DNA of 64,000 bases from a bacterium (GTDB lineage Bacteria; UBA8248). The notes under the pieces were generated by a model. It was not told the origin of the DNA, searched no databases, and saw only the letters and a list, made by a program, of their open reading frames with translations. The DNA lies in contig OY843592.1 of the NCBI GenBank assembly GCA_963692865.2, forward strand, positions 1,120,001-1,184,000, in the 5' to 3' direction. Numbering within the stretch: position 1 is the first letter of the stretch; the number at the start of each line of letters is the position of its first letter. Shown here in pieces: positions 41,101 to 63,159 of the stretch. The position numbers and the translations under genes are program-made.

Positions 41101-41635
41101 CGAACAGGAAAGAAGCTAGTCCGGTTCGTTCGACCCTGAAACGACCTGCGGCCTCTGAGGCATTCATGGGTCCGGCTTCTCGACCGGAGCGGAGGGTTTG
41201 GTCCCGGTCACGTCCAAAAACGCTTCGACCTCGCTGCGGAAGGCCAGCCCCAGAGGTTTTTCTTGACCCAAGAGATATCACGTAAGTGACGATTCTCGTG
41301 AGAAGGGACGCCCCAATGCCGAATATGGAAGTCAGAAACGCCGTTTTCAGACCGGCGAGAAGCGGCGGAACGCTGCTTTCTATATCATTGGCGTCAAAGT
41401 CTTTCAGGCCGAGAGCGATACCGATGAACGTTCCGAGAATTCCGAGAACGGTCGTCGCCGATTGCGAAAATCTGAGGGCGTTTCTTTTCCAGAAAGCGAA
41501 TACGAGGCAGATTGCGAAACATGCGAGTATCACCACGCAAAAGACTTGCGTTAGCCGTTCGGGATCGCTTGCGGGAGAAACGACGGGTTGAAAAAGGGCG
41601 TATAGAGACGAAAAAACAGGGCGCAGATAGTCCAC
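38129..41635 (-). CDS. UvrD/helicase IV (HelD-like) SF1 helicase with an N-terminal ZorA/MotA-like TM segment, an inserted PD-(D/E)xK-like nuclease and C-terminal topoisomerase C4 zinc ribbons
   Basis: Helicase motifs AAAGSGKT, TFHGLG, LVDEFQD, VGDDWQAIYRF, TVHSAKG.EAD, EERRLFYVAITRAR. Insert YRPDFYL...YIEH. Two CP.C...GCSNYP.C ribbons. Confidence 0.88.
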   Translation of the reverse strand: MDYLRPVFSSLYALFQPVVSPASDPERLTQVFCVVILACFAICLVFAFWKRNALRFSQSATTVLGILGTFIGIALGLKDFDANDIESSVPPLLAGLKTAFLTSIFGIGASLLTRIVTYVISLGSRKTSGAGLPQRGRSVFGRDRDQTLRSGREAGPMNASEAAGRFRVERTGLASFLFAVLRPRDAKAAFVSANSLKPMHGSRYTEIPIEDIVSAKVEIGLRWCGIHFHHSTGRATVSGLTQDDAWAFVEVLETNRIHWWRRTLVEEIAALHSVDERLLQLVSPPEYMARSVFRKLRRNAKKAADQFAERWPKVLSNAPEIRLLKRIQDFLKDPEPIREKANKAFVENEMFRLREFFDRIEDRPLTEEQRRAVVVDDDRNLVVAAAGSGKTSVIVAKAGWLLHRGYRRPSELLLLAFAKDAQKEMEERIRKRLSDEAAADMTVRTFHGLGMKIIGEAEGRRPGLAKAAEDEKALLDLLKTIVTDLAAEQKYYEDLLKWFQSQFAPYRSEHEFESYSEYRDYIRRHEIRSLKGEKVPSYEECEIANFLYLNGVPYEYERKYEHDTATPEKGPYRPDFYLTEAGIYIEHLGIEIEKTKLREKLQEGICIEPFGIDIEGKTAPFVPQKEYLESMAWKRRTHAEHGTILIETFSYERAAGRLTENLAGRLLAYGVTLSPIPRDEVFAMLNRQGRINPFMRLLATFLEHFKGAWLSFPEVARQAADHPDRLRAEAFLTLFQPAFERYEETLSRSEEIDFHDMIDRATEHVETGRYSSPFGYILVDEFQDISQGRARLLKALLEKSPGARLFAVGDDWQAIYRFTGSDIGIMREFIEHFGDCERIPLETTFRCADRIASVATEFVLRNPAQISKRVGSVHRADRPCVHVGLSGEQGLPLLNEALDKITEDAAKFEGKSSVLLLGRYKHTKPQNISALARKYAGLGISYKTVHSAKGREADYVVLLDLCSGRYGFPTEIEDDPLLDLVLSVPEDYPNAEERRLFYVAITRARRRVFLLAEGGPTSPFDMELFDGEYDVTVFGWMPHYDVPCPACIEGRIEQRQNRQNGGIFYGCSNYPHCRHTQQPCPVCGKGLPVKAAEAFRCRECGKFIEACPECDGSLEAKNGRYGPFIGCSNYPTCKYTRDNSKEQSNGKPFAQAAASATAYRGNASSSSM

Positions 41636-41749
41636 GGGGGTTGGGTCCTCAGTGGTTCCTCGGTTTTCAAGACAACCGCTCTATGCTAGCACCCGCGCCG
41701 GGGGTTTGTCGATTTTTTCCGGTTCTCGTTTTTCACGCCCATGCGGTTA

Positions 41750-42056
41750 GGGGTTGTTGAAAAAGTTCCTCGATGCGGGAAAACCACCGTCATTCCGGCG
41801 AAAGCCGGAATCCATTTTATGATTTTTGCTTTCGTTTTCGCATTTGATTCCGACTCGCGGGTGGGCGCGCCGCGCACGAATCCGGAACGGATGAGGTGGA
41901 TATATATGGGGGCGTCCGTATCTTCCCCGGCCGGGAGCGAGGACGTCCGGACAAAAGGCCAAAGACAAAGGTGAAAATGAATCCCGGCTGAAGGCCGGAA
42001 TGACGAGCAAAGGCGAAGGTCAATACCAAGCAAAGCGAGGGTTTTTCAACACCCCC
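41750..42056. mobile_element. MITE-like TIR cassette carrying a GTCATTCCGGCGAAAGCCGGAATCC-type REP pair
   Basis: Ends GGGGTTGTTGAAAAAG / GTTTTTCAACACCCCC. Flanks GGTTA/GGATA (near-TSD). The left end is a near reverse complement of ~48596-48660. Confidence 0.7.
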
Positions 42057-42327
42057 GGATATGTCGTGTTCGTGGCGGGGGAGGGAGGTGGGGTGCAGGA
42101 TTGCTCCACCAGGACGGTGTGTTGCTCCGTCGGCATAGCAAGAAGCCGCGACCGTATTTTCTCATCAAAATTCAGGGGAATGCTATATTAAAGGCGCATC
42201 GTCTCTAAAAGACCAATTCTTTTGGGCTCAAGACTCCAAATTAAGCCGATGCCGCAATTTGGCGGTTATAAGCTGCGCGAATCGCTTTTTCGAGTTCTTT
42301 CTCGAGACGTTCCATGGAGCCGAAAAT

Positions 42328-43320
42328 CTAAAAAAGCGCGCCTTGCGCGTTCGCAGCGGCGGCGATTGCCGTATCCGGGCCGATGTCGGGCAGGTCGCTC
42401 TCGAAAGGGTGTCCGTTTTGCCATCCGGTCTGCCCCGTGGAGCGAAATCGTTCAAGACGCCGAATCGTAATTTCCGCATAGACCGGGTCGACGTCCATGG
42501 TGAAACACTTTCGGTCGAGAATTTCACTCGCGAGCAGGGTTGTTCCCGAGTGCGCGAAAAAATCGACCACCAGATCATCGGGCGATGAACTGGCCCGAAC
42601 AATTCTGTCGATACATTTGATGGGCTTTTGGGCGTAACACCCGGAGACGTTCTCCTGCATCCGATAAAATATCTGTTGAATATCGACCCAGACGTTACCC
42701 GCCCTGATTGTATCGGACCGGCTTCTCTCCAGGTTTTCCGTTCTCTTGCCGTTCACTTTCTTGTAATATCCGCGCAGGATTTTGGGAATGTCCGTATATT
42801 CTGCATCGACCCAAAAATCAGGGTTTCCTTTCGTGTAATAGAGCAACTCCTGCCGAACCGCCATCCAGTTCTTTTGCGTGCCGTATCCCCGTTGGTTTCT
42901 CATCGTGATCATGCTTCTTGAGCGAAAAGGTTGTTCTCGCATCATGAGCGCGAAATCGGGCAATGGTTGGAAACCGTTGTTCTGGTCGGCTCCGAGCCAG
43001 ACGTAAAGCGATGAATCCGGGGCCATGGAATAATGTGAGTGAGACACCCATTTTCGGCACCATTCGATGAATTCCGTTACTTCCTTTTGCTCGAACGCGG
43101 CGAGATTGTAAGGCGGATCATGAATCGCCAGTTTCGCCCGCTCTCCGTCCATGATGCTCCGGGTGTCTTCGCCGCTGGAGGCGTCGAGACACCCGACTCG
43201 ATGGCCTCGCGCGTCGTCGATCCATATCTCTCCCGGCCGAAGGCGGCAATACGGCAGTAACTTGTTTCGCAGTTCAGGCGATGCGTCCAGTCTCGGGAGA
43301 GGGTTGTTTTTCATGGTCAC
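42328..43320 (-). CDS. Site-specific DNA methyltransferase (N6-A/N4-C, beta-type motif order)
   Basis: DPPY precedes QKP and the SAM-binding motif VVDFFAHSGTT. No cognate endonuclease visible. Confidence 0.87.
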   Translation of the reverse strand: MTMKNNPLPRLDASPELRNKLLPYCRLRPGEIWIDDARGHRVGCLDASSGEDTRSIMDGERAKLAIHDPPYNLAAFEQKEVTEFIEWCRKWVSHSHYSMAPDSSLYVWLGADQNNGFQPLPDFALMMREQPFRSRSMITMRNQRGYGTQKNWMAVRQELLYYTKGNPDFWVDAEYTDIPKILRGYYKKVNGKRTENLERSRSDTIRAGNVWVDIQQIFYRMQENVSGCYAQKPIKCIDRIVRASSSPDDLVVDFFAHSGTTLLASEILDRKCFTMDVDPVYAEITIRRLERFRSTGQTGWQNGHPFESDLPDIGPDTAIAAAANAQGALF

Positions 43321-49568: not shown

Positions 49569-50018
49569 GTGAAGAACATGGATACCTGTCGGATACTCGT
49601 GGTGGACGACGAACCCGATCTCGAAGATCTCGTGAACCAGCGCATGCGGCGCGATATCCGCAGCGGCCGCTATTCGTTCGTCTTCGCCCGCAACGGGGTG
49701 GAGGCGCTCGAACGCCTGAACGGGGACGATGAAATCGACATCGTCCTCACGGACATCAACATGCCGGAGATGGACGGCCTCACGCTGCTCGATCAAATCC
49801 CGGCGTACAACCCGAAGCTGCGCTGCGTGATCGTCTCCGCCTACGGGGACATGAAGAACATCCGCACGGCGATGAACCGGGGCGCGTTCGATTTCCTCAA
49901 CAAGCCGATTGATTTCGATGACTTGCGGCAGACCATCGAGAGGTCCGTGAAGCATCTCGCGACGATGCGGGAGGCCTTCGAGGCGCGCGACAGAATGCTG
50001 GCCGAAGGGAGAGGATGA
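49569..50018 (+). CDS. Stand-alone response regulator receiver protein
   Basis: ILVVDDE, LTDINMPEMDG, SAYGD, FLNKP. Confidence 0.9.
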   Translation: MKNMDTCRILVVDDEPDLEDLVNQRMRRDIRSGRYSFVFARNGVEALERLNGDDEIDIVLTDINMPEMDGLTLLDQIPAYNPKLRCVIVSAYGDMKNIRTAMNRGAFDFLNKPIDFDDLRQTIERSVKHLATMREAFEARDRMLAEGRG

Positions 50019-51238
50019 TGGAGGAGCCGCACAGGATACTCGTGGTGGACGACGAGCCCGATCTGGAGCAGCTCGTGCTGCAGCGCATGCGGCGCGAGAT
50101 CCGGCGCGGCCGCTATTCGTTCGTCTTCGCCCGCAACGGGGTGGAGGCGCTCCAGCGTCTGCGCGAGTGCGCCGATAACGGAAAAGAGCGGATCGACATG
50201 GTGCTCACGGACATCAACATGCCGGAGATGGACGGCCTCACGCTGCTCGATCAAATCCCCTCGGTCGACACCAACGTGCGCTCCGTGGTCGTCTCAGCCT
50301 ACGGGGACATGAAGAACATCCGCACGGCGATGAACCGGGGCGCGTTCGACTTCGTCACCAAGCCGATCGATTTCGAGGATTTGCGGATCACCATAGAGCG
50401 GACCCTGGAGCACCTCGCCATGCTGCGCGAGGCTCTCGATGCGCGCGACAGGCTGGTCGCGCTGAGGAGCGACCTCTCCCTGGCCAGCAAGATGCAGCAA
50501 TCGATCCTGCCGACGAAATTCCCCGAAAGCCCCCACTACGAGATATTCGGGGGCATGGAGCCCGCCCGAGACGTGGGGGGCGATTTTTTTGACATCATCG
50601 AATTGGCCGACGGCCGCCTCGCCATGACGGTCGCCGACGTTTCGGGCAAGGGGGTGCCCGCCGCCCTGTTCATGATGTCGAGCCGCACGCTGCTCAACAG
50701 CGTCGCCGTTGCGCGCGCCCATCCGGGCGACGTGCTCGGCGAGGTCAACCGTATGCTCCAGCCCGGCGACGTGCTGAGCGAGGTGAACCGCCTGCTCCAG
50801 GAGAACAACGACGCCGCGATGTTCGTCACCGTCTTCTTCGCCATTTTCGACGCCGCGACCGGCGAGATCATCTACTCGAACGGCGGGCACAATCCCCCCG
50901 TCGTCCTCCATGCCGACGGGTCATCGAGCCTGCTTTCCCAGGATCCGGGGATCGCCCTCGGGATCGCGCCCGAATTCAGCTACGACATATATAAAGCGAC
51001 TATCGCGCTCGGCGACGCCCTCGTTCTCTACACCGACGGCGTGACGGAGGCGGAGAACGAGAAGACCGAGCAGTTCGGCCTCGACCGCCTCCGGGGGATT
51101 CTCGGAGGTTCGCCGCCGGCCTCCGCCCGGGAGATCAACGAGAAAGTTTTCGAGGCGGTCAAGGAGTTCGCGGGCACTGCGCCCCAGTTCGACGACGTCA
51201 CCTGCCTGACCCTTTATCGTCGCGGAGGGGGGGAATGA
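50015..51238 (+). CDS. REC + PP2C (SpoIIE/RsbU-type) serine phosphatase
   Basis: REC domain followed by QQSILP, VGGDFFD, ADVSGKG, MFVT, NGGHNPP, YTDGVTE, DDVT. Confidence 0.93.
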   Translation: MMEEPHRILVVDDEPDLEQLVLQRMRREIRRGRYSFVFARNGVEALQRLRECADNGKERIDMVLTDINMPEMDGLTLLDQIPSVDTNVRSVVVSAYGDMKNIRTAMNRGAFDFVTKPIDFEDLRITIERTLEHLAMLREALDARDRLVALRSDLSLASKMQQSILPTKFPESPHYEIFGGMEPARDVGGDFFDIIELADGRLAMTVADVSGKGVPAALFMMSSRTLLNSVAVARAHPGDVLGEVNRMLQPGDVLSEVNRLLQENNDAAMFVTVFFAIFDAATGEIIYSNGGHNPPVVLHADGSSSLLSQDPGIALGIAPEFSYDIYKATIALGDALVLYTDGVTEAENEKTEQFGLDRLRGILGGSPPASAREINEKVFEAVKEFAGTAPQFDDVTCLTLYRRGGGE

Positions 51239-51654
51239 GCGCGAAACTATCCTTGACGATGAGGTTCGAAGCCTCCGACCTCCCGCAAATCCAATCCGCC
51301 ATCGGGGAGTTCAGCCGGGAGCAGGACTGGCCGCCCGACATCGAATTCCAGGTCGACCTCGTGCTCGAAGAACTGGTGCTCAACGTCGTGCACCACGGCA
51401 GCGACCGCGGAGAGGGTGAAATCACCATCGAAATCTTCTCGGACGCGGACGCGGTGATCATCGAGATCATCGACGACGGCCGGCCGTTCGACCCCCTGAC
51501 CGACGCGCCCGATCCCGACACCGAATCGGCCATCGAAGACCGCCCCGTGGGCGGGCTCGGCATCCATCTGGTGCGGACGATGATGGACGAAGTGGCCTAT
51601 CGGCGGGAGGAGAACAAGAACCACATTCGCCTCGTCAAGCGGAGGAGTGAATGA
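51235..51654 (+). CDS. RsbW/SpoIIAB-like anti-sigma Ser/Thr kinase (HATPase_c_2)
   Basis: EELVLNVVHH, IDDGRPFDP, GGLGIHLV. Confidence 0.9.
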   Translation: MSAKLSLTMRFEASDLPQIQSAIGEFSREQDWPPDIEFQVDLVLEELVLNVVHHGSDRGEGEITIEIFSDADAVIIEIIDDGRPFDPLTDAPDPDTESAIEDRPVGGLGIHLVRTMMDEVAYRREENKNHIRLVKRRSE

Positions 51655-52844
51655 GGCTCCCGCTCCGGACCCGCCGGGCGTTTATCCTGCTTGCCGCCGC
51701 GATAATCTGCTCGGCGTCGGAAGCGCGGGCGGCCGCGCCCGGGGTTTCCCCCCGGCGGATTCTTTTCGGCCAGTCCGCCGCTTTCACCGGTCCCGCCAGG
51801 GCGCTGGGCGAGGAGATGCGGCTCGGGGTCGAAGCCGCCTTTCGCGCGGAGAACGCGCGCGGCGGCGTTCACGGGCGCCGGCTCGAACTCACCTCCCTCG
51901 ACGATGCGTATGAACCCGAAGCCGCCATCCTGAACACCCGCCGGTTGATAGAACAGAACAAGGTTTTCGCCCTCATCGGGGCCGTCGGAACGCCCACCTC
52001 GCGCTCGGCCACGCCGGTCGCCGCAAATGCGGGCGTCCCCTACATCGCGCCCTTCACCGGCGCCGCCTTCCTGCGCGACCCCAAATGGAAGAATATCATC
52101 AACCTGCGCGCCTCCTACTTCCAGGAGACCGAGGAGATGGTGAATCGGCTGATCAGGGACTTGGGCGTCAAGAAGATCGCCGTGCTCTACCAGGACGATT
52201 CTTTCGGCTTGGCGGGCTACCGGGGCGTTCGCCGCGCCCTTGAGCGGCGAAACCTGAAACCGGCGGTCACCGGGGTGTATCCGCGGAATACGACGGCGGT
52301 CAAAACGGCCCTGCTCGACATCAGGCGCGCGAAACCCGCAGCGGTGATCCTGGTGGGGGCTTACAAGCCGGTCGCCGCCTTCATCGCCTGGGCGCGCCAT
52401 ACGGGTTTCAATCCGATTTTCGTGACGCTCTCCTTCGTGGGCAGCAATGCGCTCGTGCGTGAGCTCGGCCCCGCCGGGGTCGGAATCTACGTCACCCAGG
52501 TGGTTCCGTTTCCGACGACGGAAAATCTTGAGATCGCAGCGGACTTCAGGCGGGACCTGGAGGCTCACAAGCCCGGCGCGGCCCCCAGCTTCGTCTCCTT
52601 CGAGGGCTACATGGCCGGCAGACTGGCCATCCGCGCCCTCGAGTTGTGCGGGCGCGAGCCCGATCGCGACTGTCTTCTGAAGAGCCTGCGACGCGCGGCC
52701 GCCATCGACCTCGGCGGATTCAAGCTCCGCTACGGCAAGGATGACAACCAGGGCTCGGACGCCGTTTTCCTCACCGTCGTCGGCGAGGGCGGCCGCTACA
52801 TTCCGACCGAAAAAATACGGCGGCCGGAGCAGGAGCAACGATGA
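51651..52844 (+). CDS. Periplasmic ligand-binding protein (Peripla_BP_6), probably a sensory partner of the adjacent kinase
   Basis: Signal peptide, FGQSAAFTGP, LDDAYEP, GAVGTPT, NLRASY. No ABC permease adjacent. Confidence 0.85.
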   Translation: MRLPLRTRRAFILLAAAIICSASEARAAAPGVSPRRILFGQSAAFTGPARALGEEMRLGVEAAFRAENARGGVHGRRLELTSLDDAYEPEAAILNTRRLIEQNKVFALIGAVGTPTSRSATPVAANAGVPYIAPFTGAAFLRDPKWKNIINLRASYFQETEEMVNRLIRDLGVKKIAVLYQDDSFGLAGYRGVRRALERRNLKPAVTGVYPRNTTAVKTALLDIRRAKPAAVILVGAYKPVAAFIAWARHTGFNPIFVTLSFVGSNALVRELGPAGVGIYVTQVVPFPTTENLEIAADFRRDLEAHKPGAAPSFVSFEGYMAGRLAIRALELCGREPDRDCLLKSLRRAAAIDLGGFKLRYGKDDNQGSDAVFLTVVGEGGRYIPTEKIRRPEQEQR

Positions 52845-55033
52845 AAGGCGCGCTGAAAAACCTGCTGGACAAGCGTTACAAGATATCGACGCAACTCTAC
52901 CTCAGCATCGGCGCCGCCGCTTCTCTCACCGTCATCGCGAGCGTGGTCGCGTGGGTCTCTTTCGGGTTCGTGGGAGAGGTGCAGAACCGCGTGAACGAGG
53001 GCACCGTCCCGTTCCTGGCGAGCGCCTTTGGAATCGCCCAGGAGAGCACCGCCCTGGTGGCGGCCGCGCCGCGGCTGGCCGCGGTGGTGAATCCCGATAA
53101 TCTGAACCAGATAGCCACCGAGGTCGCCAAGGACCAGGAGGCGTTCGAGACGGCGCTTGCGGCGCTGATTCGCCAGGAAGGGAACGAGGAAATCTCCCTG
53201 CGCATCAAGAAGCTCGGAGAGGTGCTGATAGAGAACCTCAACGCCATCAAACGACTGGTGCTGCAGCGTTTCGACCTCACCGATCTGCGTGATACCCTGC
53301 AACTCCAGCTCACGTGGGTGCGCAAGGAACTGAACAACGTCATGGTTCCCGCCATCGACGATCAGCTGTTCTACGCAATGACGGGCTACGGCAAAATCGG
53401 CAAGGCGTCCGTTCCCCGCGAGAAACACTTCTCCGAAGAGGGAATCAACCTCTACCGCTACATCGCCGGCTTGCGGTCGGACGCCACCATCGCAACGCAG
53501 CTTCTCGCCACCGCCTTCAGCGTGTCGGACGCCGCCCAGCTCGAGCCGTTGCGCGAGCGGTTCGAGGCCACGGCGCGCGGCATCAGGCGGCGTATGAACG
53601 CGCTCGGGAAGGTTCCGGTGCGCGCGGCTCTCGAACCTCTCTTCGAACAGATGATCGAGCTGAGCATCGGGGAGGAGGGGGGGTTCAGCCTGCGCGCGCG
53701 CGAACTGGCGCTCGAGAGGAAACAGGGCGAGTTGCTCGCGTTTCACGAATCTCAGGAAGCGAAGATCCTGGCCGCCACGCAAACGCTGGTGAGCACGGCC
53801 CGCATGAGCGCGAAGCAGGCCACCCAGGACTCCGCCCAGGCCATCAGCATGGGCGGCAACATCCTGCTCGCGCTGAGCGCCATCAGCTTCGTCGGCGCCG
53901 TGCTGATCGGGTGGTTGTTCATCGGCCGCGTGCTGTCGCGCCGGCTCGGGCGGCTCTCGGACCGCATGCGCCGCATGGCCGACGGCGACCTGGAGGAGAG
54001 GGTCGACATCGGCGGTCAGGACGAAGTGGCGGAAATGGCGGCGGCGCTGGAGATATTCCGCCGCCACGCCCTGGAGGTGCAGCGCTTGAACCTCGTGGAG
54101 AAACTCGCCGAGGAGATCAAGGCGAAGAACGAAGAGCTCGAGACCACGCTGGGCGACCTGGAGAAGGCGCAGGATCAGATCGTCATGCGCGAGAAACTCG
54201 CGGCGCTCGGCGAACTGACGGCGGGCGTCGCCCACGAGATCAGAAATCCGCTGAACTTCATCAAGAACTTCTCGGAAGTTTCCGAAGAGTTGATGGAGGA
54301 GTTGATGGAAGAGCTGGAGAAGGCGCTGGATCACGGCGGCAACGGACAGGAAAACGGACAAGGAGCGAAGGAAGAGGAGAAAAAACAGGACGAGGAGGAG
54401 GATCCGGTCGAGCTCATCAACGAAATCGGAGAGGACCTGACTGGCAATCTCCAGCGCATCCGCGAGCACGGGGAGCGGGCCAACAGCATCGTGGAGAGCA
54501 TGCTCCAGATGGGCAGGGGGTCGGGCGAAGCGCAGCCGACCAACATCAATACCCTGCTCGATGAACACACGCGCCTCGCCTATCACAGCGCCCGGGCGGC
54601 CGACCCGAACTTCAACCTCACGATCGATTGGGATCTGGACCCGGACATGGTGGAATGCGAAGTCATTCCGCAGGATTTGGGGCGCGTCTTCCTGAACATG
54701 GTGAGCAACGCCTGCTACGCCACCGACGAGAAGCGAAAAAATCTCACCGCCTCGGCAGGTGAAGATGAACCGCGCTACGACCCCACCCTGAAACTCGCTA
54801 CGAGATGCGGCCCGGACGGCATCGAGGTGCGCATTCGCGATAACGGTAGCGGTATGCCGCCCGAAGTCGCCGAGAAGATATTCAACCCATTCTTCACGAC
54901 AAAGCCGACGGACAAGGGCACCGGGCTCGGCCTCTCGCTCTCCAGCGACATCATTCGTCAGCACGGGGGAAACATACGGGTCGAAACCGAGCCGGACGAA
55001 TTCACGGAGATGGTCATCGAGTTGCCGCGATGA
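52841..55033 (+). CDS. Membrane sensor histidine kinase (TorS-like helical periplasmic domain, HAMP, HisKA, HATPase)
   Basis: Two TMs, DEVAEMA (HAMP), [34 protein letters not shown]. Confidence 0.9.
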
Positions 55034-55137
55034 GCGGCCTCGGCCGCCCGCTCAGGATATCCGGGAAAATTTCGGGAGAGATGAAGGATTGCAGGGCGGC
55101 GCGCGAAGGCGACGAAGAAGGCTTTGCTTTCGACCCG

Positions 55138-55476
55138 TCAGCCTGCGGTCGCGGCGAGCGCCTCCGCCTTCGAGCCGTGGATCTGTATGATTCGGTCGAA
55201 ACCGGATATCTCGAAAACCTCGCGCGTCAGTTCACCGAGCGCGTACAGTGCGAACATCGTATTGTTTTGGCTGAGTTGCTTGGCGACCAGCAGGACGGCG
55301 CGGAGGCCGGCGCTGCTGATATACGAGACACCCTCGAAATTGACGATGACGGCGCGGTCGCCGTCGCTGATGACGTTCTTTATCGTACTTTCGAATTCAG
55401 GAGCGGTGGCGCCGTCGATGCGGCCATCAACCTGCACGACCAAGGTACCGTTTTCCTGCTCAGTCTTGATTTCCAT
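55138..55476 (-). CDS. STAS-domain anti-sigma factor antagonist
   Basis: GRIDGATA, YISSAGLR (phospho-Ser), VFEISGF. Confidence 0.92.
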   Translation of the reverse strand: MEIKTEQENGTLVVQVDGRIDGATAPEFESTIKNVISDGDRAVIVNFEGVSYISSAGLRAVLLVAKQLSQNNTMFALYALGELTREVFEISGFDRIIQIHGSKAEALAATAG

Positions 55477-55950
55477 GCCCGGCTCTGCCTCCCACAACGG
55501 CCTGAGATATTTTCCGTTATCGGCCCGATACCACGAGAGTGTACGCCCAGGCCGTAAATTTACTCCGCCTAGCGTAATACATTATATCACACGAATGCAA
55601 CGACATTCCCCGCGTTCGCGCAAAAACAACGTAGTCATAATGACCACTTCTTCGAGAAAGACGCTAGCCAGCATATACAATTTCTCCCCTTTTGGCAACT
55701 TATGGGGTCGTTTTCGGTTCAATATCATTTTTACCGCCCCGCGCAGGAAGTTCCTGACGGCCCGGTCAGTTTGCTCCCATTTCGTTGACAATCTGCCGGG
55801 AATCAGTGAAACTTGGCGAAATGCGACACGACGAATGACGAGGTTTTCCGTTGCGCTAGGTTTGCTCCTTGGGGCGGGACGGGACGCTCGGGCAGGCCTC
55901 TCCATATTCTGCCCAGGTCATTTTTTTGTTCTACCCCTGTACAAGGAGGC

Positions 55951-57408
55951 ATGATGAATCTCTCGGCAGAAGCAACAAAAGGGGCTGGTGACGACGGCCT
56001 GCGGATGACGTCCGACGCGATGCTGGAGCTCGCGCGCCGGGCGGCGGAACTCCTCGTGGAGCGCACCGAGGGCCTCAGCGAAGGAGGCGCCTGGGACGGG
56101 GATTTCCAGCAGGAGCTCGAAAAACAACTCATGGAGGCGCCGCCCGAAGAGGGACGTTCGGCGAAGGAGGTATTGGAGCGCGCCGCGCGTGATATTCTCC
56201 CTTATTCGTTGCGTCTGGACCATCCCCGCTCCCTCGCGTTCGTCTCGGCCTCGCCCACCTGGCCGGGGGTGCTGGCCGACTTCATGGCTGCCGGCTACGC
56301 CATCAACCAATGCACCTGGCTGGTCGCGAGCGGCCCGAGCCAGCTCGAACTGGTGGTCATCGACTGGTTCCGGCGCTGGGTCGGTTATCCCGACGGCGCG
56401 GGCGGTCTTTTCACGAGCGGGGGATCGGCGGCGAGCCTGGACGCGTTCGTCGCGGCGCGCGAGGCGGCGGGTCATCCCGATCGCGCGAGCGTCTACATGA
56501 GCGACCAGAGCCACAGCGCGCACGTCCGCGCGGCGCGCATCATCGGGGTTCGCCCCGAGCGCATCCGGTTGCTCCCGTGCGATGAACGCTTCCGGCTGGA
56601 TATGGAAGCGCTCGCTCGCGCCGTGAATGAGGATCGCGCGGCGGGGCTTCACCCCATAGCGGTCTGCGCCAACGCCGGAGCGGTCAGCACCGGGGCCATC
56701 GACCCGCTCGAAGAGATGGCGGATTTCTGCGAGGCGCAAGGAATCTGGCTGCACGTCGACGCCGCCTACGGCGGTTTCGCGGCCGTGACCGAGCGGGGCA
56801 GGGAACTCCTCACAGGCATGGAGCGCGCCGATTCGATAGGGATGGACGCGCACAAATGGTTCTTCCAGCCCTACGAGGCGGGCGCCCTGCTCGTCAAGGA
56901 CGTCAGCACGCTCGAACGCGCCTTCGCGGTGCGCCACGACATTCTCCAGGACACGATATGGGGCGCGAACCACCCGAACTTCTCGGACCGCGGCCTGCAG
57001 CTGAGCCGCTCGTTCCGTGCGCTCAAGGTCTGGATGTCGGTGCAGACCTTCGGGATGGGCGCGTTCCGGCGGGCCGTCTCGAAGGGGATGGAACTGGCCG
57101 ACCGGGCCGAGGAATACGTTCGCGAGAGTCCGGTTCTGGAGATGCTTACGCCCGTCTCGCTGGGGATCGTGTGCTTCCGGGTCAATCCGGCGGACGCAGG
57201 CCTCGACGAGAGAGCGATCGAGGATCTCAACAAAACGATGCTCGCCCGCGTCTTCTGGGACGACAAGGCGTTCATCTCCTCGACGCTTCTCAAGGGAAAG
57301 TTCGCGCTGCGCTTTTGCATCATCAACCACACGACGACCTGGGACGACGTGCGCGAGACGCTCGAGACCATCGAGCGCTTCGGCAAAGAAGCGCTGGGTA
57401 CGGGTTGA
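55951..57408 (+). CDS. Group II PLP-dependent (aromatic-L-amino-acid-like) decarboxylase
   Basis: RBS AAGGAGG. DHPR, GLFTSGG, SDQSHS, TGAIDPL, WLHVDAAYGG, DAHKW (PLP Lys), SRSFRALK.W. Confidence 0.88.
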   Translation: MMNLSAEATKGAGDDGLRMTSDAMLELARRAAELLVERTEGLSEGGAWDGDFQQELEKQLMEAPPEEGRSAKEVLERAARDILPYSLRLDHPRSLAFVSASPTWPGVLADFMAAGYAINQCTWLVASGPSQLELVVIDWFRRWVGYPDGAGGLFTSGGSAASLDAFVAAREAAGHPDRASVYMSDQSHSAHVRAARIIGVRPERIRLLPCDERFRLDMEALARAVNEDRAAGLHPIAVCANAGAVSTGAIDPLEEMADFCEAQGIWLHVDAAYGGFAAVTERGRELLTGMERADSIGMDAHKWFFQPYEAGALLVKDVSTLERAFAVRHDILQDTIWGANHPNFSDRGLQLSRSFRALKVWMSVQTFGMGAFRRAVSKGMELADRAEEYVRESPVLEMLTPVSLGIVCFRVNPADAGLDERAIEDLNKTMLARVFWDDKAFISSTLLKGKFALRFCIINHTTTWDDVRETLETIERFGKEALGTG

Positions 57409-57615
57409 TGGCCTCGGCGCCCACCCGGGCCCGATCTCCCCGCATCCCCCTCGCAGCCCACTTCAAAAAACTTGCCTCCACGCGCTCTCTGGCGTAATCT
57501 GAACGTATTCGAGTTTCTTGCGACGCTATCACGCTCGCTTTTCCGCTTCCGGAAAGGAAGCGGCGTTTCCCGCTCCCGCCCCGATGAAGCGGGATTCGGC
57601 TCAGGAGGCCCCACG

Positions 57616-60600
57616 ATGAGATTTCCGAGACGAATGGTTTTGACCGCACTCATCCTTTCGCTGGCCGGCGTCCTGTCCGGCGCGCTCGCCGCCTTCGCGC
57701 AGGATTGCCCGCGCCCGTCGGGCGTCGCCCCGAACTCGCTCGAAACCCCGGACGTTACGGCCGCGCAGGCGGCGGCGAACCCCACGGCCGCGAACCTCAA
57801 GGCCTTCGCCCTGGCGGGGAAAGACCTGATAGCGAGTTCCAGGACGTTTCCTGCGAATTCATACGTTTTGTGTCTTTTCAAGAATCATTCGAACTGGAAT
57901 TCCGGCTCCATCTACGTCACGGGCCTGACTCCGGACGGGAGACTGCTCTTTCACCCGAACAATGCGAATCTCGGGGGCAGGCGGCTCAACCCCGCCCTTT
58001 GGGGACAGATCGCCGGCGCGGCCGGTTTGACTCCAAGGGGTTTCAGCAATCCGGACGGCGGCGCTTTGCCGGGAGGCGGGCATGCGGTCGGTTATATAGA
58101 CGGTCTTTCCAACTTCCCGCACATCGTGGTGGCCGGCCTCGATATCCAGGAATCCAGCCTAGTGAAGGAAGTCCTCGACCCGGGCGCCATCCCGGCCGTA
58201 ACGGCCAGGGACGTGGTGGACCGCGCGACGCTCGAGGCCTTCGTGAACGGGGCGAGGACTTTCATGGGAAACTTCTTCCGTGACCGCGGCAACACCTTTT
58301 CAAAACTGAGGAGCGTCTTCAGGACCGAGCATTGGAGGCACGGCGAAATCTACCTGTTCCTGATGGATGAAAGCGGCTACACGTTCTTTCACGGGGGGGA
58401 TCCGGGGCGATACGAACTCGCCACCCCCACGGACACCTTGCGGGACGTCGTCACCGGCAAGCTCATTCTGCCGCAGATCATCGAGGCGGCGAAGAAACCC
58501 GGCGGCGGCTTCGTGCAGTACTATTTCGACAACCCCGACGACGACACGGACAGCGCCGACGTGCCGAAGGTGACCTTCGCCCGCAGTCTCAGGAATGAAG
58601 TTACTGGAAATTCATTCATCATCGGCGCGGGGATCTACAGGGACCCGGGCGCGGTGTCCGAGGCCGTCTGCCCGCGCCCGGCGGGCGTGGCGGTGAATAC
58701 GCTGGAGACCCCGGACGTTACGGCCGCGCAGGCGGCGGCGAACCCCACGGCCGCGAACCTCAAGGCCTTCGCCCTGGCGGGGAAACGGTATCTGGCGAGC
58801 GTTCGTCCGGGGCCGGAATTGGTGTACAGCGGGTGCCTCCTCAGGAATGAGGGCCCCTGGAAGGCAGGCTCCAACTACGTCGTCACCATGACCACCGACG
58901 GCAGGGTGCTCTTGCACTCGGGCAATATGGCCTTGAGCGGCAAGCCGCTCAAGGCCGCCGTCTGGAGGGCGATAGCCGCCGCGACCGGCGCGGCCGCCCT
59001 GGGAACGACGGGCGCCTTCGGGAAACCGGACGGAGGCGCCCTGCCGGCGGAGGTCGGCGGCGGCTACGCCGTCGGCTTCAAGCGCACCCAGGGAGGCGCC
59101 ACGTTCATCCTGGTCGCCGGCCTCGACATCGGGAAATCCGACCTCGCGCCGGAAACCGTCGACCCCGGCAATCCGCCGATCCGGGCCGATCAGGTGGTGG
59201 ACCGCGCGACGCTCAAGACCTTCGTGAAAGGAGCGAAGGACTACGTCCTCCAGCTCTACAGGACCGAAGGCCGCAGCGCCTTTTCGAAGGCGAAGAGCGT
59301 CCTCCGGGACCCGAAAGGCCCCTGGCGGAGCGGTCCCGTCTATCTCTTCATCATGGAGCCCACCGGCTACACGATCTTCCACGGGGCGTTTCCGGACAAG
59401 TACGAACTCCAGACCCCGACGGCCACCCTCAGGGATCAGGTCACCGGCGATCTCATCCTGCCGCAGATCATCAATGCGGCGAAGAAACCCGACGGCGGCT
59501 TCGTGAAGTATTATTTCGACAACCCCGACGACGACACCGACAGCGCCACGGTCCCCAAGGTGACCTATGCGGTCCGGCACGTCATTCGTGCTACGCGGGC
59601 GGACGGCAGCACGTTCGAATACCCGCTCATCTTCGGCGCGGGGATCTACGGCGATCCGGACACGGTGTCCGAGGACGCCTGCCCGCGCCCGCCGGGCGTC
59701 GCGAAGAACCCGCTGGAGACCCCAAGCGTCACGGCCGCCCAGGCGGCGGAGAGCGCGGAGAACCTGAAGGCCTTCGCCCTGGCGGGGAAACGGTATCTGG
59801 CGAGCGTCCGCGTGGGGCCGGAATTGACGTACAGCAGGTGCCTCTTCAGGCATGAGGGGCCCTGGAAGACCGGCGCCACCTACGCCGCCACCATTTCCCT
59901 CGACGGCAGGGTGATCTTTCACTCGGGCAATATGGCCTTGAGCGGCAGGCCGCTCAAGCCCGCCGTCCGGGGGGCGATAGCCGCCGCGACCGGCGCGGCC
60001 GCCCTGGGAACGACGGGCGCCTTCGGGAAGCCGGACGGCGGCGCCCTGCCCGGCGGCGGCTACGCCGTCGGCTTCAAGCGCACCGTCGGAGGCGGCACGG
60101 GAATCCTGGTCGCCGGCCTGGACATCAGGGAATCACAACACCTCGCGCCGGAAACCGTCGACCCCGGCGATCCGCCGATCCGGGCCGACCAGGTGGTGGA
60201 CCGCGCGACGCTCAAGACCTTCGTGAACGGAGCGAAGGACTACGTCCTCCAGCTCTACAGGACCGAAGGCCACAGCGCCTTCACGAAGGCGAAGAGCGTC
60301 CTCCGGGACCCGAACGGACCTTGGAGACACGGCCCCGTCTACCTCTTCATAATGGAGCCCACCGGCTACACGCTCTTCCACGGGGCGTTCCCGGACAAGT
60401 ACGAGCTCCAGGCCCCCACGAATACCCTGCGGGACGCCGTCACCGGCAAGCTCATCCTGCCGCAGATCATCCAGGCGGCGACCGCCAACCCCGACGGCGG
60501 CTTCGTGAAGTATTATTTCGACAACCCGGACGACGACACGGACAACGCCACGGTCCCCAAGGTGACCTATGCGGTCCGGCACGTCATTCGGGGGCAGAGG

Positions 60601-63159
60601 CAGGACGGCAGCGCGATCGAATACCCGATCATCTTCGGCGCGGGGATCTACGGGGACCCGGGCGGCGTGTCCGAGGACGCCTGCCCGCGTCCGCCGGGCG
60701 TCGCCGTGAACCCGCTGGAGACCCCAAGCGTTACGGCCGCGCAGGCGGCGGGCGGCGGAGACCTGGGCGCGTTCGCGCGGGCGGCGCGGGACTACTTCAA
60801 CACCATCGTGACGCCGGAGGAGTTGGGCTACGCCGGGTGCATCACCCGGAACGAGGGCCCCTGGAAGGCCGGCGACACCTACCTTTCCGCCGTGACGCTC
60901 AACGGCAGGGTGCTCTTCAACGCGAAGGACATGTCGACGGGGGGCCGACCGCTCAAGCCCGAGGTTCATGCGGCCATCCTTTCGGCGGCGCTGGGGGTCC
61001 CTCTTGACCCGGCCAACCCGGCCGCCTTCCAGAGCGCCGTGGCCGCCGCCCTGGGCCAAGTGGCCGCAACGGCCGCCACGGGGAAAGCCGTTTTCCCGAA
61101 GCCCGGCGGCGGCCCCGTGCCGCTGCTCGGCGGCTACGCCGTGGGGTACGGCGCCAACATTCCCTACATTTTCCTGGCCGGCCTGGACCTCAAGGAATCC
61201 CACTTCGGGGAGGAAACCCTGCCGCCTGCGGACCCGGAGGTCAGCGCCGACGAGGTGGTGGACCGCCGGACGCTCAAGAAATTCGTGAACGGGGCGACGG
61301 ACTACTTCCTCGGAATCATGCGGTCGAAGCCCACCGAAGCCCTCGGCATCGCGAGGAGCGTCATGAGGCGGCCGCCCTGGAAGCACGGCTCCGTCTACCT
61401 GTTCGTGATGGACCCGAACGGCTACACGCACCTTCACGGCGGGTTCCCGGACAGGTTCGAGTTCCAGACCCCGACGGCCACCCTCAGGGACCAGGTCACC
61501 GGCGATCTCATCCTGCCGCAGATCATCGAGGCGGCGCAGAGGCCCGGCGGCGGCTTCGTGCAGTATTATTTCGACAACCCCGCCGACGACAGCGACAGCG
61601 CCGACGTGCCGAAGGTGACCTATGCGCACCTGATCACCGTGACGGTCAACGTCCCCGGCTTCGGACCGATAACCAGTTCGTCCATCATCGGCGCGGGCAT
61701 CTACGGGGATCCGCTCTCGAAGGAGAGCCTTGCGGCGGCGCGCGGCTGGCTGGCGCGCTTCGGCCGGGCGGCGGCGAGCCAGGCGGTGGAGATGATCGCC
61801 GGCCGCATGAACGCCCCCGCCCCGAGCGGGGCGAAGATGACGCTCGGCGGGCGGACGGTGAACCTCGATGAGGGCTCGGCCCGCTTCATGGCGGAGAACG
61901 ACCCGGAGGTCATGGACCGGGATGGTCTCGAGCGCTGGGTCGCGTCGAGGAGGCTCGCGATGGGGCGCGACGCCCCGGAGACCTACCGCGAGACGACGGT
62001 GAGCGAACTCCTCTCGGGCGGTTCGTTCCACCTGGCCTCGGCGAAGGACGCCGGGGAGGCGGCCGGCCGCTGGTCGATCTGGGGCCGCGGGTCGCGGACG
62101 AGCTTCGAGGGCGGAGAGGCCGCTACCCAAGGCGACGTGACGACGGCCATGCTGGGGATGGACTACGAGAAGGACAGCGTCCTCATGGGCCTCGCGCTCT
62201 CGCGCGCCACGGGCGAGGGCGGCTTCGAGAACGGGGGCAGCGGCGAGATGGAGGCGACGCTCACGAGCGTGCACCCCTACCTGCGCTACCGGGCGAACGA
62301 GCGGCTCTCGATGTGGGGCATCCTGGGAATGGGCCAGGGAGAGATGACGCTGGAAGTGGAGGAGAAAGACGTCGACAAGAAGGTCGAAGCCGAGACCGAC
62401 ATCGAGATGCGCATGGCGGCGTTCGGGCTTCGGGGAGAATTAACGAAGACGGGCGGGTTCGACCTGGCGGTGAAGTCCGACGTCCTGGTGGCGCAGACGG
62501 ACGCGGACGCGGCCGACGGGGTCGAGGCGATATCGGCGGAGACGACGCGGCTCCGGGTGATGCTCGAAGCCTCGCGCGAGGTGGCGATGAAGAACGGCGG
62601 CGCGTTCACGCCTTCGGTGGAGGCGGGCCTTCGCCATGACGGAGGCGACGCGGACGAGGGGGTCGGCGTGGAGGTGGGCGGCGGCCTGCGCTTCACGAAC
62701 CCGGCCTCGGGCCTCACGCTGGAGCTCAAGGCGCGCGGGCTCCTCGCGCATGAAGAGGAAGACGTGACCGACTGGGGCGTGGGCGGCATGATCCGCTTCG
62801 CTCCGGGGAAGGCGGGCCGTGGGCTTGCGCTCACCGTGCGGCCCTCGGTGGGCGAGACGGCGGGCGGCGCCGAGCGGCTGTGGGGCATCGAGGACGCCTC
62901 GCGCCTGGCGAAAGGGGAAGTCGGGGACCTCGACCCCCGCGTGCGCGCGGAGGTGGGCTACGGGCTGGACGCCTGGGGCGGCCTGCTGACGCCCTACGCG
63001 GGCCTTTCGGTGTCCGAGGACGGCGGCGGCGCCTACCGCCTGGGCGGTCGTTTCAGGATGGGCGAACGCCTCAGCATGAGCGTCGAGGGCGACGTGCGCG
63101 AGCGCGAGAACGACGACCCCGTCCACGGCGTGGCGCTGCGCGGCTCCCTGCGATGGTAG
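57616..63159 (+). CDS. Autotransporter with a passenger of four tandem double-Cache units
   Basis: RBS AGGAGG and signal peptide. Four ~320-340-aa repeats begin CPRP at 57706, 58669, 59680 and 60682. Linker helix WLARFGR, then a beta-barrel (WSIWGRG, GMDY, HPY, EAGLRHDGGD, EVGYG) ending in W. Confidence 0.85.
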   Translation: MRFPRRMVLTALILSLAGVLSGALAAFAQDCPRPSGVAPNSLETPDVTAAQAAANPTAANLKAFALAGKDLIASSRTFPANSYVLCLFKNHSNWNSGSIYVTGLTPDGRLLFHPNNANLGGRRLNPALWGQIAGAAGLTPRGFSNPDGGALPGGGHAVGYIDGLSNFPHIVVAGLDIQESSLVKEVLDPGAIPAVTARDVVDRATLEAFVNGARTFMGNFFRDRGNTFSKLRSVFRTEHWRHGEIYLFLMDESGYTFFHGGDPGRYELATPTDTLRDVVTGKLILPQIIEAAKKPGGGFVQYYFDNPDDDTDSADVPKVTFARSLRNEVTGNSFIIGAGIYRDPGAVSEAVCPRPAGVAVNTLETPDVTAAQAAANPTAANLKAFALAGKRYLASVRPGPELVYSGCLLRNEGPWKAGSNYVVTMTTDGRVLLHSGNMALSGKPLKAAVWRAIAAATGAAALGTTGAFGKPDGGALPAEVGGGYAVGFKRTQGGATFILVAGLDIGKSDLAPETVDPGNPPIRADQVVDRATLKTFVKGAKDYVLQLYRTEGRSAFSKAKSVLRDPKGPWRSGPVYLFIMEPTGYTIFHGAFPDKYELQTPTATLRDQVTGDLILPQIINAAKKPDGGFVKYYFDNPDDDTDSATVPKVTYAVRHVIRATRADGSTFEYPLIFGAGIYGDPDTVSEDACPRPPGVAKNPLETPSVTAAQAAESAENLKAFALAGKRYLASVRVGPELTYSRCLFRHEGPWKTGATYAATISLDGRVIFHSGNMALSGRPLKPAVRGAIAAATGAAALGTTGAFGKPDGGALPGGGYAVGFKRTVGGGTGILVAGLDIRESQHLAPETVDPGDPPIRADQVVDRATLKTFVNGAKDYVLQLYRTEGHSAFTKAKSVLRDPNGPWRHGPVYLFIMEPTGYTLFHGAFPDKYELQAPTNTLRDAVTGKLILPQIIQAATANPDGGFVKYYFDNPDDDTDNATVPKVTYAVRHVIRGQRQDGSAIEYPIIFGAGIYGDPGGVSEDACPRPPGVAVNPLETPSVTAAQAAGGGDLGAFARAARDYFNTIVTPEELGYAGCITRNEGPWKAGDTYLSAVTLNGRVLFNAKDMSTGGRPLKPEVHAAILSAALGVPLDPANPAAFQSAVAAALGQVAATAATGKAVFPKPGGGPVPLLGGYAVGYGANIPYIFLAGLDLKESHFGEETLPPADPEVSADEVVDRRTLKKFVNGATDYFLGIMRSKPTEALGIARSVMRRPPWKHGSVYLFVMDPNGYTHLHGGFPDRFEFQTPTATLRDQVTGDLILPQIIEAAQRPGGGFVQYYFDNPADDSDSADVPKVTYAHLITVTVNVPGFGPITSSSIIGAGIYGDPLSKESLAAARGWLARFGRAAASQAVEMIAGRMNAPAPSGAKMTLGGRTVNLDEGSARFMAENDPEVMDRDGLERWVASRRLAMGRDAPETYRETTVSELLSGGSFHLASAKDAGEAAGRWSIWGRGSRTSFEGGEAATQGDVTTAMLGMDYEKDSVLMGLALSRATGEGGFENGGSGEMEATLTSVHPYLRYRANERLSMWGILGMGQGEMTLEVEEKDVDKKVEAETDIEMRMAAFGLRGELTKTGGFDLAVKSDVLVAQTDADAADGVEAISAETTRLRVMLEASREVAMKNGGAFTPSVEAGLRHDGGDADEGVGVEVGGGLRFTNPASGLTLELKARGLLAHEEEDVTDWGVGGMIRFAPGKAGRGLALTVRPSVGETAGGAERLWGIEDASRLAKGEVGDLDPRVRAEVGYGLDAWGGLLTPYAGLSVSEDGGGAYRLGGRFRMGERLSMSVEGDVRERENDDPVHGVALRGSLRW

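Follow-up and report, generated by a model that had tools for sequence, protein, structure and literature searches.

Why would a bacterium export a string of sensor domains with no part that could pass on what they sense? This question is raised by the gene at 57616-63159 (+) of the stretch of DNA analysed here, positions 1,120,001 to 1,184,000 of contig OY843592.1 (assembly GCA_963692865.2, lineage UBA8248), a stretch of 64,000 nucleotides (nt) that we call the window. Among the extracellular sensor modules of prokaryotes, Cache domains are described as the most common. The initial annotation, made from the letters of the DNA, described the gene as an autotransporter with eight Cache-like modules and no signalling output, and took its product for a multivalent ligand trap, a scavenger or a lectin-like adhesin. 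Our results suggest that the product is probably a multivalent binder of a carboxylate-bearing ligand displayed at the cell surface, and thus a non-sensory use of Cache domains; the trap, scavenger or adhesin idea fits the invariant pocket described below.

The gene lies in a single, uninterrupted open frame (57472-63159, +), in which the ATG at 57616 is the likely start of a product of 1847 amino acids (aa). By inspection, the N-terminus of this protein has a basic stretch, a hydrophobic core and A-F-A before Q-D-C, and looks like a Sec signal peptide. Behind it the motif CPRP recurs at aa 31, 352, 689 and 1023 (nt 57706, 58669, 59680 and 60682), with spacings of 963, 1011 and 1002 nt, and opens four units of about 330 aa each. 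The organization first proposed, a signal peptide, four tandem units and a barrel, stands to the nucleotide, since the starts and spacings match exactly and the C-terminal region is recognized by Pfam as a beta-domain. The four units can be aligned end to end, with 118 invariant columns, and units 1, 3 and 4 are 59%, 83% and 54% identical in protein to unit 2; protein identities in the set run from 52% to 83%. The statement that units 2 and 3 are nearly identical in DNA was too strong: a repeat search found three blocks of 265-300 nt that are about 90% identical. Tandem Repeats Finder, whose longest period is 500 nt, reported no repeat in the gene, whose units are about 1 kb long. The whole protein contains eight Cys, two in each unit, and the acidic loop DNP.DD.D is present in all four units in the unit alignment, both as first described.

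The Pfam models point to the Cache superfamily in every unit and to a signalling output domain nowhere in the 1847-aa protein. The top match is dCache_2 (PF08269; 2.6e-31, 109.3 bits, above its cut-off), found in four stretches that each span only about positions 81-184 of the 298 in the profile; sCache_2 (PF17200) follows with 7.7e-25 and 88.1 bits against a cut-off of 25, also in four stretches, one per unit. An AlphaFold model of unit 2, built from 37 sequences, has a predicted local distance difference test score (pLDDT) of 91.7 and a predicted template modelling score (pTM) of 0.89, and consists of two helix-plus-sheet modules, hereafter the N-module and the C-module. The C-module (residues 175-335 of the unit 2 model) aligns with VIA-align to 4EXO (Z 14.3, root-mean-square deviation (rmsd) 2.6, 132 aa), 4K08 (Z 14.1) and TlpB (Z 12.7), and Foldseek finds 4EXO/2QHK (1.5e-05), 4K08 (2.2e-05) and 5G4Y (1.2e-04) with it. 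The family sequence profile matches 2QHK, 4K08 and 4EXO at E values of about 1e-05, in the C-module only. As modelled, the C-module of each unit is a canonical sCache_2 domain, with a PAS-like alpha/beta fold and an N-terminal helix. The N-module, which has no match in Pfam, was modelled alone (unit 2 residues 24-153, 48 sequences; pLDDT 96.1, pTM 0.90) and aligns with VIA-align to 4K08 (Z 9.6, rmsd 3.0, 112 aa), 5ERE (8.8), 7K5N (8.7) and 4EXO (8.6); of the 50 rows listed, nearly all belong to sensor or ligand-binding domains of the Cache, PDC or PAS type, and we accept the modelled N-module as a degenerate Cache-like module. The eight modules first counted can thus be read as four degenerate and four canonical ones. 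Because solved double-Cache chains align in VIA-align to one module only (model residues about 175-335), and because both modules of the unit 2 model possess separate N-terminal helices, we regard the unit as a tandem pair and not as a textbook double-Cache on one stalk helix.

What could such a unit bind? In the available text on the chemoreceptor domain of PscD (PMC5062169), the carboxylate of the ligand receives hydrogen bonds from Tyr90, His103, Tyr143 and Lys156, the ligand is sandwiched between Trp92 and Trp145, and all seven contact residues of PscD are identical in 4K08. Through a hidden Markov model (HMM) alignment to 4K08, a mapping made by sequence alignment and not by inspection of coordinates, the four donors fall on Y225, H238, Y281 and K297 of unit 2, and F227 and F283 replace the Trp pair. 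Their conservation was followed in 122 distinct full-length units that share about 40% identity overall; four belong to the window and 118 to 70 loci in named genomes, which makes 71 sources. Each residue of the tetrad is kept in 122/122 units, as are R213, E246, D284, P286, D288, D291 and C56, while C1 is kept in 121; the acidic loop thus keeps its three Asp in all 122 units and the Cys pair is nearly as constant, as their conservation within the window had first suggested. The counterparts in the N-module are looser (Y70 in 109 units, H83 in 107, Y133 in 87, and the Lys in none). The acidic loop follows the third contact residue and precedes the fourth, is three residues longer than the hairpin of 4K08, and by its place in the alignment should border the pocket. 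In the same alignment, the positions of PscD's Phe126 and Met129, which line its pocket at the back, are taken by the smaller L264 and I267, and the ligand may therefore exceed acetate or propionate in size. Ten invariant polar residues around one pocket, and a loop that could hold a metal, would also suit an enzyme, in which a Cache scaffold would carry a metal-dependent active site made up of His, Lys, Tyr, Asp and Glu, all invariant; the invariant core coincides, however, with a known binding tetrad and not with a catalytic one, and the structural neighbours are all binding domains, so that we consider catalysis extremely unlikely.

The absence of an output domain extends from the gene to its relatives. 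With unit 2 as query, 437 proteins (representative clusters) were found at E<=0.001 among 1.84 billion representatives, and the best 150 of these matches were taken for a domain scan: of 145 newly listed, two sets of 61 and 30 were scanned and 54 shorter than 340 aa were left out. A third set of 38 open reading frames (ORFs) from named genomes brought the total to 129. None of the 129 relatives (0/61, 0/38 and 0/30) has HisKA, HATPase, MCP signal, GGDEF, EAL, HAMP or other signalling output, in agreement with the first description of the gene itself; true sensors may occur among the 54 short proteins or the 287 lower-ranking matches, all of which lie outside the scan. The partners that were found are of another kind. 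Autotransporter domains occur in 7/61, 13/38 and 1/30 relatives, Por_Secre_tail in 4/61, 3/38 and 1/30, and C-terminal FlgD_ig in 5/61, 10/38 (7 of them without Por_Secre_tail) and 2/30. In the 38-ORF set FlgD_ig overlaps Por_Secre_tail in 3/3 relatives that have both, as it does in the relative P0090, and from these profile matches we read both as tails of the type IX secretion system (T9SS). Lamin-tail, PKD, LRR and DUF4397 are further partner domains, and one relative (P0083) has seven Cache stretches. A search of the ESM Atlas returned Cache_2 clusters alone. In the 499-aa relative P0099, an HTH_21 domain, of the transposase type, precedes the Cache unit, and may reflect a chimeric gene call or an insertion beside the gene.

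The C-terminal region argues for type V export. PF03797 (Autotransporter) matches aa 1488-1686 with 1.6e-08 and 35.0 bits against a cut-off of 26, and the NCBIfam model TIGR01414 reaches 18 bits against 16; the cut-offs of both the Cache and the autotransporter HMMs proposed as a check are thus exceeded. The linker at aa 1368-1487 has no family match and may be the pore-spanning helix. In a whole-protein search, close relatives have two, three or four units on the same kind of C-terminal domain, and further relatives share the C-terminal domain only, behind FN3, Calx-beta, cadherin or LRR passengers. The window's own genome has paralogous barrels, 44-95% identical, at six further full-length places. 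Its Cache-unit paralogues are three: the four-unit gene of the window, a three-unit gene, and a four-unit gene cut by a contig end. Besides these paralogues, four full-length barrels (44-76% identity; G000:C1:3058922-3060379, 772246-773613, 3219709-3221130 and 238930-240351) stand behind FN3, Calx-beta and other passengers. In addition, two short barrel fragments at C1:446223-446574 look like the remnant of a gene.

In which organisms, and where, is this unit used? A locus search with a 13-row unit alignment, in one genome per species, found 241 stretches that encode a relative in species-representative genomes, of which 75 loci were kept. They carry about ten phylum-level labels; the record titles name Nitrospinota, Latescibacterota, Binatia, Thermodesulfobacteriota, Rhodothermales, Gemmatimonadota, Acidobacteriota, Alpha- and Gammaproteobacteria, and Opitutales. 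In the window's own phylum, the unit is present in 13/51 genomes, all of the window's genus, where 12/22 other genomes have it, and in 0/28 genomes of 14 other genera. This distribution, patchy within a phylum and spread across phyla, fits horizontal spread in a shared habitat. The four isolate labels checked, COS4_bin_23, RHO1_bin_79, IRC1_bin_16 and APA_bin_29, appear in Table S1 of Robbins et al. 2021 (PMC8163846) as sponge metagenome-assembled genomes (MAGs), and COS4_bin_23 and RHO1_bin_79 are listed there as Nitrospinota of class UBA8248; SB0662_bin_51 was not found in that table under that spelling. The wide search across taxa first recommended for this architecture therefore leads to about ten phylum-level labels and to many sponge MAGs. 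In a run labelled 'sponge metagenome', pieces of this stretch were found, 57 of them at an identity of at least 99%, with all 30 bins covered.

In the comparison of sponge and seawater MAGs in Table S3 of PMC8163846, PF17200 is enriched 9.3-fold and PF08269 6.8-fold, PF13860 4.3-fold and PF03797 2.6-fold (not significant), and PF02743 (dCache_1) stands at 0.23-fold; the word 'cache' is absent from the main text of that paper. For sponge Thaumarchaeota, the available text of PMC7848895 reports enriched cache Pfams and suggests host recognition. The unit family is thus a concrete candidate behind a supplementary signal that went unremarked, in which Cache_2 Pfams are 7-9-fold up in sponge MAGs and dCache_1 is depleted.

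The number of units in these proteins appears to have changed repeatedly. A tree built from 47 units of 18 proteins sorts them according to their place in the protein, as first, middle or last. The middle units form sister pairs within P0005 (96/86) and within P0015 (100/99), and those of the window lineage form one clade (94/85); internal duplication therefore happened several times, independently in three lineages, which bears out the ongoing expansion first proposed from the window alone. Such duplication, which takes the unit number from two to four as in repeat adhesins, together with the FN3 and Calx-beta passengers, typical of adhesins, on related barrels in the same genome, would also be expected if the units served as a stalk or made homophilic cell-cell contacts in aggregation or biofilm, with the old pocket disused. 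A vestigial pocket, however, would not retain four contact residues and six further pocket-side residues in 122/122 units at about 40% identity, and a purely structural role seems to us very unlikely. At five loci (L061, L064, L069, L071 and L078), three to eight adjacent ORFs have one Cache unit each, some of them cut or split, and these arrays end, where scanned, in a tail of the FlgD_ig/T9SS type. They are an amplification of the same unit at the level of the gene and not of the domain. Contigs from DNA and RNA libraries join 59688 to 60696 and 60342 to 61433, skipping about one unit length, which indicates co-occurring forms with fewer units, either paralogues or strain variants.

How does this protein compare with known systems? 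Like the sCache_2 domains of chemoreceptors (PscD-SD 5G4Y, Adeh_3718 4K08, the methyl-accepting chemotaxis protein (MCP) of V. parahaemolyticus 4EXO/2QHK, and TlpB 3UB6), the C-module is predicted to have the sCache_2 fold and has the same four carboxylate-contacting residues. In contrast to them, the unit domain has no flanking transmembrane helices, HAMP or MCP output, follows a degenerate module that contains a Cys pair, has Phe or Tyr in place of the flanking Trp and a hairpin three residues longer with three invariant Asp, and in the window is repeated fourfold and, by its C-terminal domain, exported by a type V route. The available text of Upadhyay et al. 2016 (PMC4822843) describes dCache_2 as a duplication of sCache_2. 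The unit resembles dCache_2 in having two Cache_2-type modules in series and in its top Pfam match, and differs from it in the partial profile match, in the alignment of one module only and in the N-terminal helix of each module. In the same text, Cache domains are said to have been detected solely in proteins that contain output signalling domains and, SMP_2 excepted, to be all sensory; the unit family, with no output domain in the relatives scanned, differs from the Cache proteins described there. As in type Va autotransporters (PF03797, TIGR01414), there are a putative signal peptide, a passenger, a linker, a beta-domain above both cut-offs and an aromatic C-terminal residue. Here, unlike in the classical type Va proteins, the passenger is predicted to consist of globular alpha/beta ligand-binding domains with Cys pairs and not of a beta-helix, and the 480 aa from the end of unit 4 to the C-terminus have no solved barrel detectable by sequence. 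A parallel is found in eukaryotes: the alpha2-delta subunits and CACHD1 have extracellular Cache modules for binding and not for signal output of the prokaryotic type, and are weak structural neighbours (8S7C Z 7.7, 8X90 Z 7.1). Their modules are set in a different architecture, are of the dCache_1 type and show no sequence relation to the units.

In the literature searched in full text, we found no description of Cache-passenger autotransporters or of secreted Cache proteins without output, and nothing on autotransporters of Nitrospinota in sponges. New in this work are the two-module unit with its putative Cys bridge, the conservation of the pocket in 122/122 units, the finding that only one genus of the window's phylum has the unit, the connection with the enrichment table already in print and the adjacency of a decarboxylase gene described below. 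The significance lies in the size of the family, with 437 representative clusters and 241 places in genomes, in which the pocket is intact and is joined, among the relatives scanned, only to devices of secretion or anchoring.

We propose that a type V pathway exports a passenger made of four two-module Cache units in a string. In each unit, the degenerate N-module would be a scaffold, stapled by a disulfide between the two near-invariant Cys, that packs against the canonical sCache_2 module; N-module and Cys pair most likely stabilize the unit outside the cell. The C-module would keep the pocket by which the sCache_2 domains of chemoreceptors grip a carboxylate, with the acidic loop beside it, whose invariant Asp could either bind Ca2+ or touch the ligand at a cationic group. 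The units are joined to no transmembrane part for signalling, and ligand binding would therefore not be turned into a cellular signal. The cell surface would display four equivalent binding sites, most likely used to bind, in a multivalent manner, a molecule or epitope of the sponge habitat that bears a carboxylate. Such binding could serve to attach the cell to material of the host or matrix, to recognize such material, or to retain a metabolite derived from the host. The role that we consider most likely is to adhere to, or recognize, something in the sponge matrix. The ligand question is directly testable with one soluble unit of about 330 aa.

Several observations weigh against this proposal. 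The fold of the N-module is less secure than that of the C-module, since Foldseek finds nothing at E<=0.001 with it alone (best 4.6e-02) and its best VIA-align score (Z 9.6) is just middling. With Phe for the flanking Trp and a smaller back wall, as read from the alignment, the ligand need not be a C2/C3 carboxylate. The C-terminal 480 aa have no solved relative by sequence: the single sequence gives a chance-level match to a flagellar protein (E 0.7) and a 20-sequence profile gives none, results that are uninformative on the fold. Natural autotransporter passengers rarely have widely spaced disulfides, and a narrow barrel of 12 strands would therefore be ill suited to the export of folded alpha/beta domains with four disulfide loops of 55 residues. 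Two metatranscriptomic runs yielded 30 and 12 contig pieces, mostly 90-95% alike; these come from RNA libraries that may contain DNA and belong mostly to relatives at that identity, and are not proof of transcription. Finally, surface exposure, the disulfide, the class of ligand, Ca2+ binding and the biological role are all matters that we infer. The preferred reading, a multivalent binder at the cell surface, is held with these points in mind; it remains in accord with the Cache fold predicted for both modules and with a C-terminus that matches the autotransporter models.

What can be learned from the neighbouring genes (Table 1)? When the 652 ORFs that flank 76 loci were clustered, no neighbour proved dominant, and the only specific recurrent one was the gene that precedes the autotransporter gene in the window and ends 208 nt ahead of it, coding for a decarboxylase dependent on pyridoxal phosphate (PLP). 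One flanking-ORF cluster that crosses phylum labels was considered as a partner and rejected, consisting merely of ABC ATPases. Among solved structures the decarboxylase is closest to 4obu (1.7e-78), with tyrosine, DOPA and tryptophan decarboxylases next, and no equivalog cut-off of NCBIfam is reached. In seven genomes a decarboxylase gene and a Cache-unit gene are immediate neighbours on the same strand (the window, L023, L024, L032, L038, G027 and G035). In Rhodothermales (L023:7321-8799, L024:7323-8792 and L032:7205-8752) and Binatia (L038:8912-10411), it is immediately downstream of the Cache-unit gene, so that the pair occurs in both orders, and the flanks past the pair differ between loci. 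The decarboxylases of the window, Rhodothermales and Binatia are 71-77% identical, whereas the adjoining units are only 44-48% identical to those of the window.

From these findings it could be supposed that the units capture a metabolite for the decarboxylase. They would bind an aromatic or other amino acid, the tetrad holding its carboxylate and the Asp or Glu its amine, and the two genes would form a mobile cassette that feeds or regulates amine production; the recurrent adjacency on one strand, in either order and between differing flanks, the high identity of the enzyme across phylum labels and its kinship with 4obu all speak for such a cassette. The pair is, however, present in just 5/76 loci, the window included, and among the 13 genomes of the genus with both genes it is adjacent in 3 (G000, G027 and G035), far apart on one contig in 4 and unjudgeable in 6. 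Moreover, the two paralogues of the window gene have no decarboxylase neighbour in the flanks examined, the genome has one copy of the enzyme, the enzyme falls short of every equivalog cut-off, and, having no evident export signal, it would need a transporter, none of which is conserved. Metabolite capture with the decarboxylase is thus unlikely in our view, and the linkage of the two genes is recurrent but facultative. In the window's genus, the decarboxylase gene is often tandemly duplicated, in two to three copies. A still bolder proposal, which we consider rather improbable, is that the Cys-bridged double-Cache unit is a horizontally spread 'symbiosis domain' of the sponge habitat, responsible for the Cache_2 enrichment, that captures an aromatic or other amino acid of the host or an acidic host epitope at the cell surface, in some lineages in a two-gene cassette with the decarboxylase; if true, such a cassette would tie surface capture to biogenic amines able to act on the host. 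In the 208-nt gap between decarboxylase and autotransporter genes, an 8-bp inverted repeat with a 5-nt loop (57543-57563) is absent from the terminator scan and could act as a weak terminator or as a hairpin in regulation.

Directly upstream of the decarboxylase gene, the genes at 50015-55497 form a module of the partner-switching type. Their REC-SpoIIE, binding protein, HAMP kinase and STAS products, and the STAS or SpoIIE genes near the pair in L024 and L066, would be in keeping with a sensor that works in trans, in which displayed or released units report their occupancy to a separate membrane signalling protein, for instance this kinase. The module is not, however, conserved beside unit genes in 70 of the other loci, a passenger anchored in the outer membrane has no evident route to a kinase in the inner membrane, and a fusion to an output domain was seen in none of the relatives scanned; signalling in trans is accordingly most improbable, and binding at the surface remains the reading that we prefer.

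Table 1. Features of the autotransporter gene and of the genes upstream of it (positions in the window)
Feature	Position (nt)	Strand	Basis or remark
REC-SpoIIE phosphatase	50015-51238	+	domain scan
Periplasmic binding protein (Peripla_BP_6)	51651-52844	+	domain scan
HAMP-HisKA-HATPase histidine kinase	52841-55033	+	domain scan
STAS protein	55138-55497	-	domain scan
Group II PLP decarboxylase, aromatic-L-amino-acid-decarboxylase-like, 485 aa from ATG 55951	55951..57408	+	Pfam Pyridoxal_deC 9.1e-65
Shine-Dalgarno-like GGAGG	57604..57608	+	8 nt before ATG 57616; read directly from the sequence
Putative signal peptide, aa 1-29	57616..57702	+	ends A-F-A before Q; translation inspected by eye
Unit 1 N-module, degenerate Cache/PDC-like, with both Cys of unit 1	57706..58194	+	unit alignment; fold predicted from its homology with unit 2
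Unit 1 C-module, sCache_2 with Tyr-His-Tyr-Lys tetrad and acidic loop	58195..58668	+	best Pfam stretch, aa 231-343
Unit 2 N-module	58669..59175	+	AlphaFold of the module alone, VIA-align
Unit 2 C-module, sCache_2	59176..59679	+	AlphaFold of the whole unit, Foldseek, VIA-align
Unit 3 N-module	59680..60174	+	unit alignment; similarity of unit 3 to unit 2 in protein
Unit 3 C-module, sCache_2	60175..60681	+	Pfam, unit alignment
Unit 4 N-module with Ala-rich insertion of about 20 aa	60682..61236	+	unit alignment
Unit 4 C-module, sCache_2	61237..61716	+	Pfam, unit alignment
Linker between passenger and barrel, aa 1368-1487	61717..62076	+	conserved in C-terminal regions of 20 relatives
Autotransporter beta-domain and stop codon	62077..63159	+	Pfam match aa 1488-1686; protein ends in Trp

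Elsewhere in the window, the interval 38129-43320 contains, both on the - strand, a gene for a UvrD-type helicase of 1168 aa with two zinc ribbons of the topoisomerase type and, adjoining it, a gene for an N6/N4 DNA methylase.

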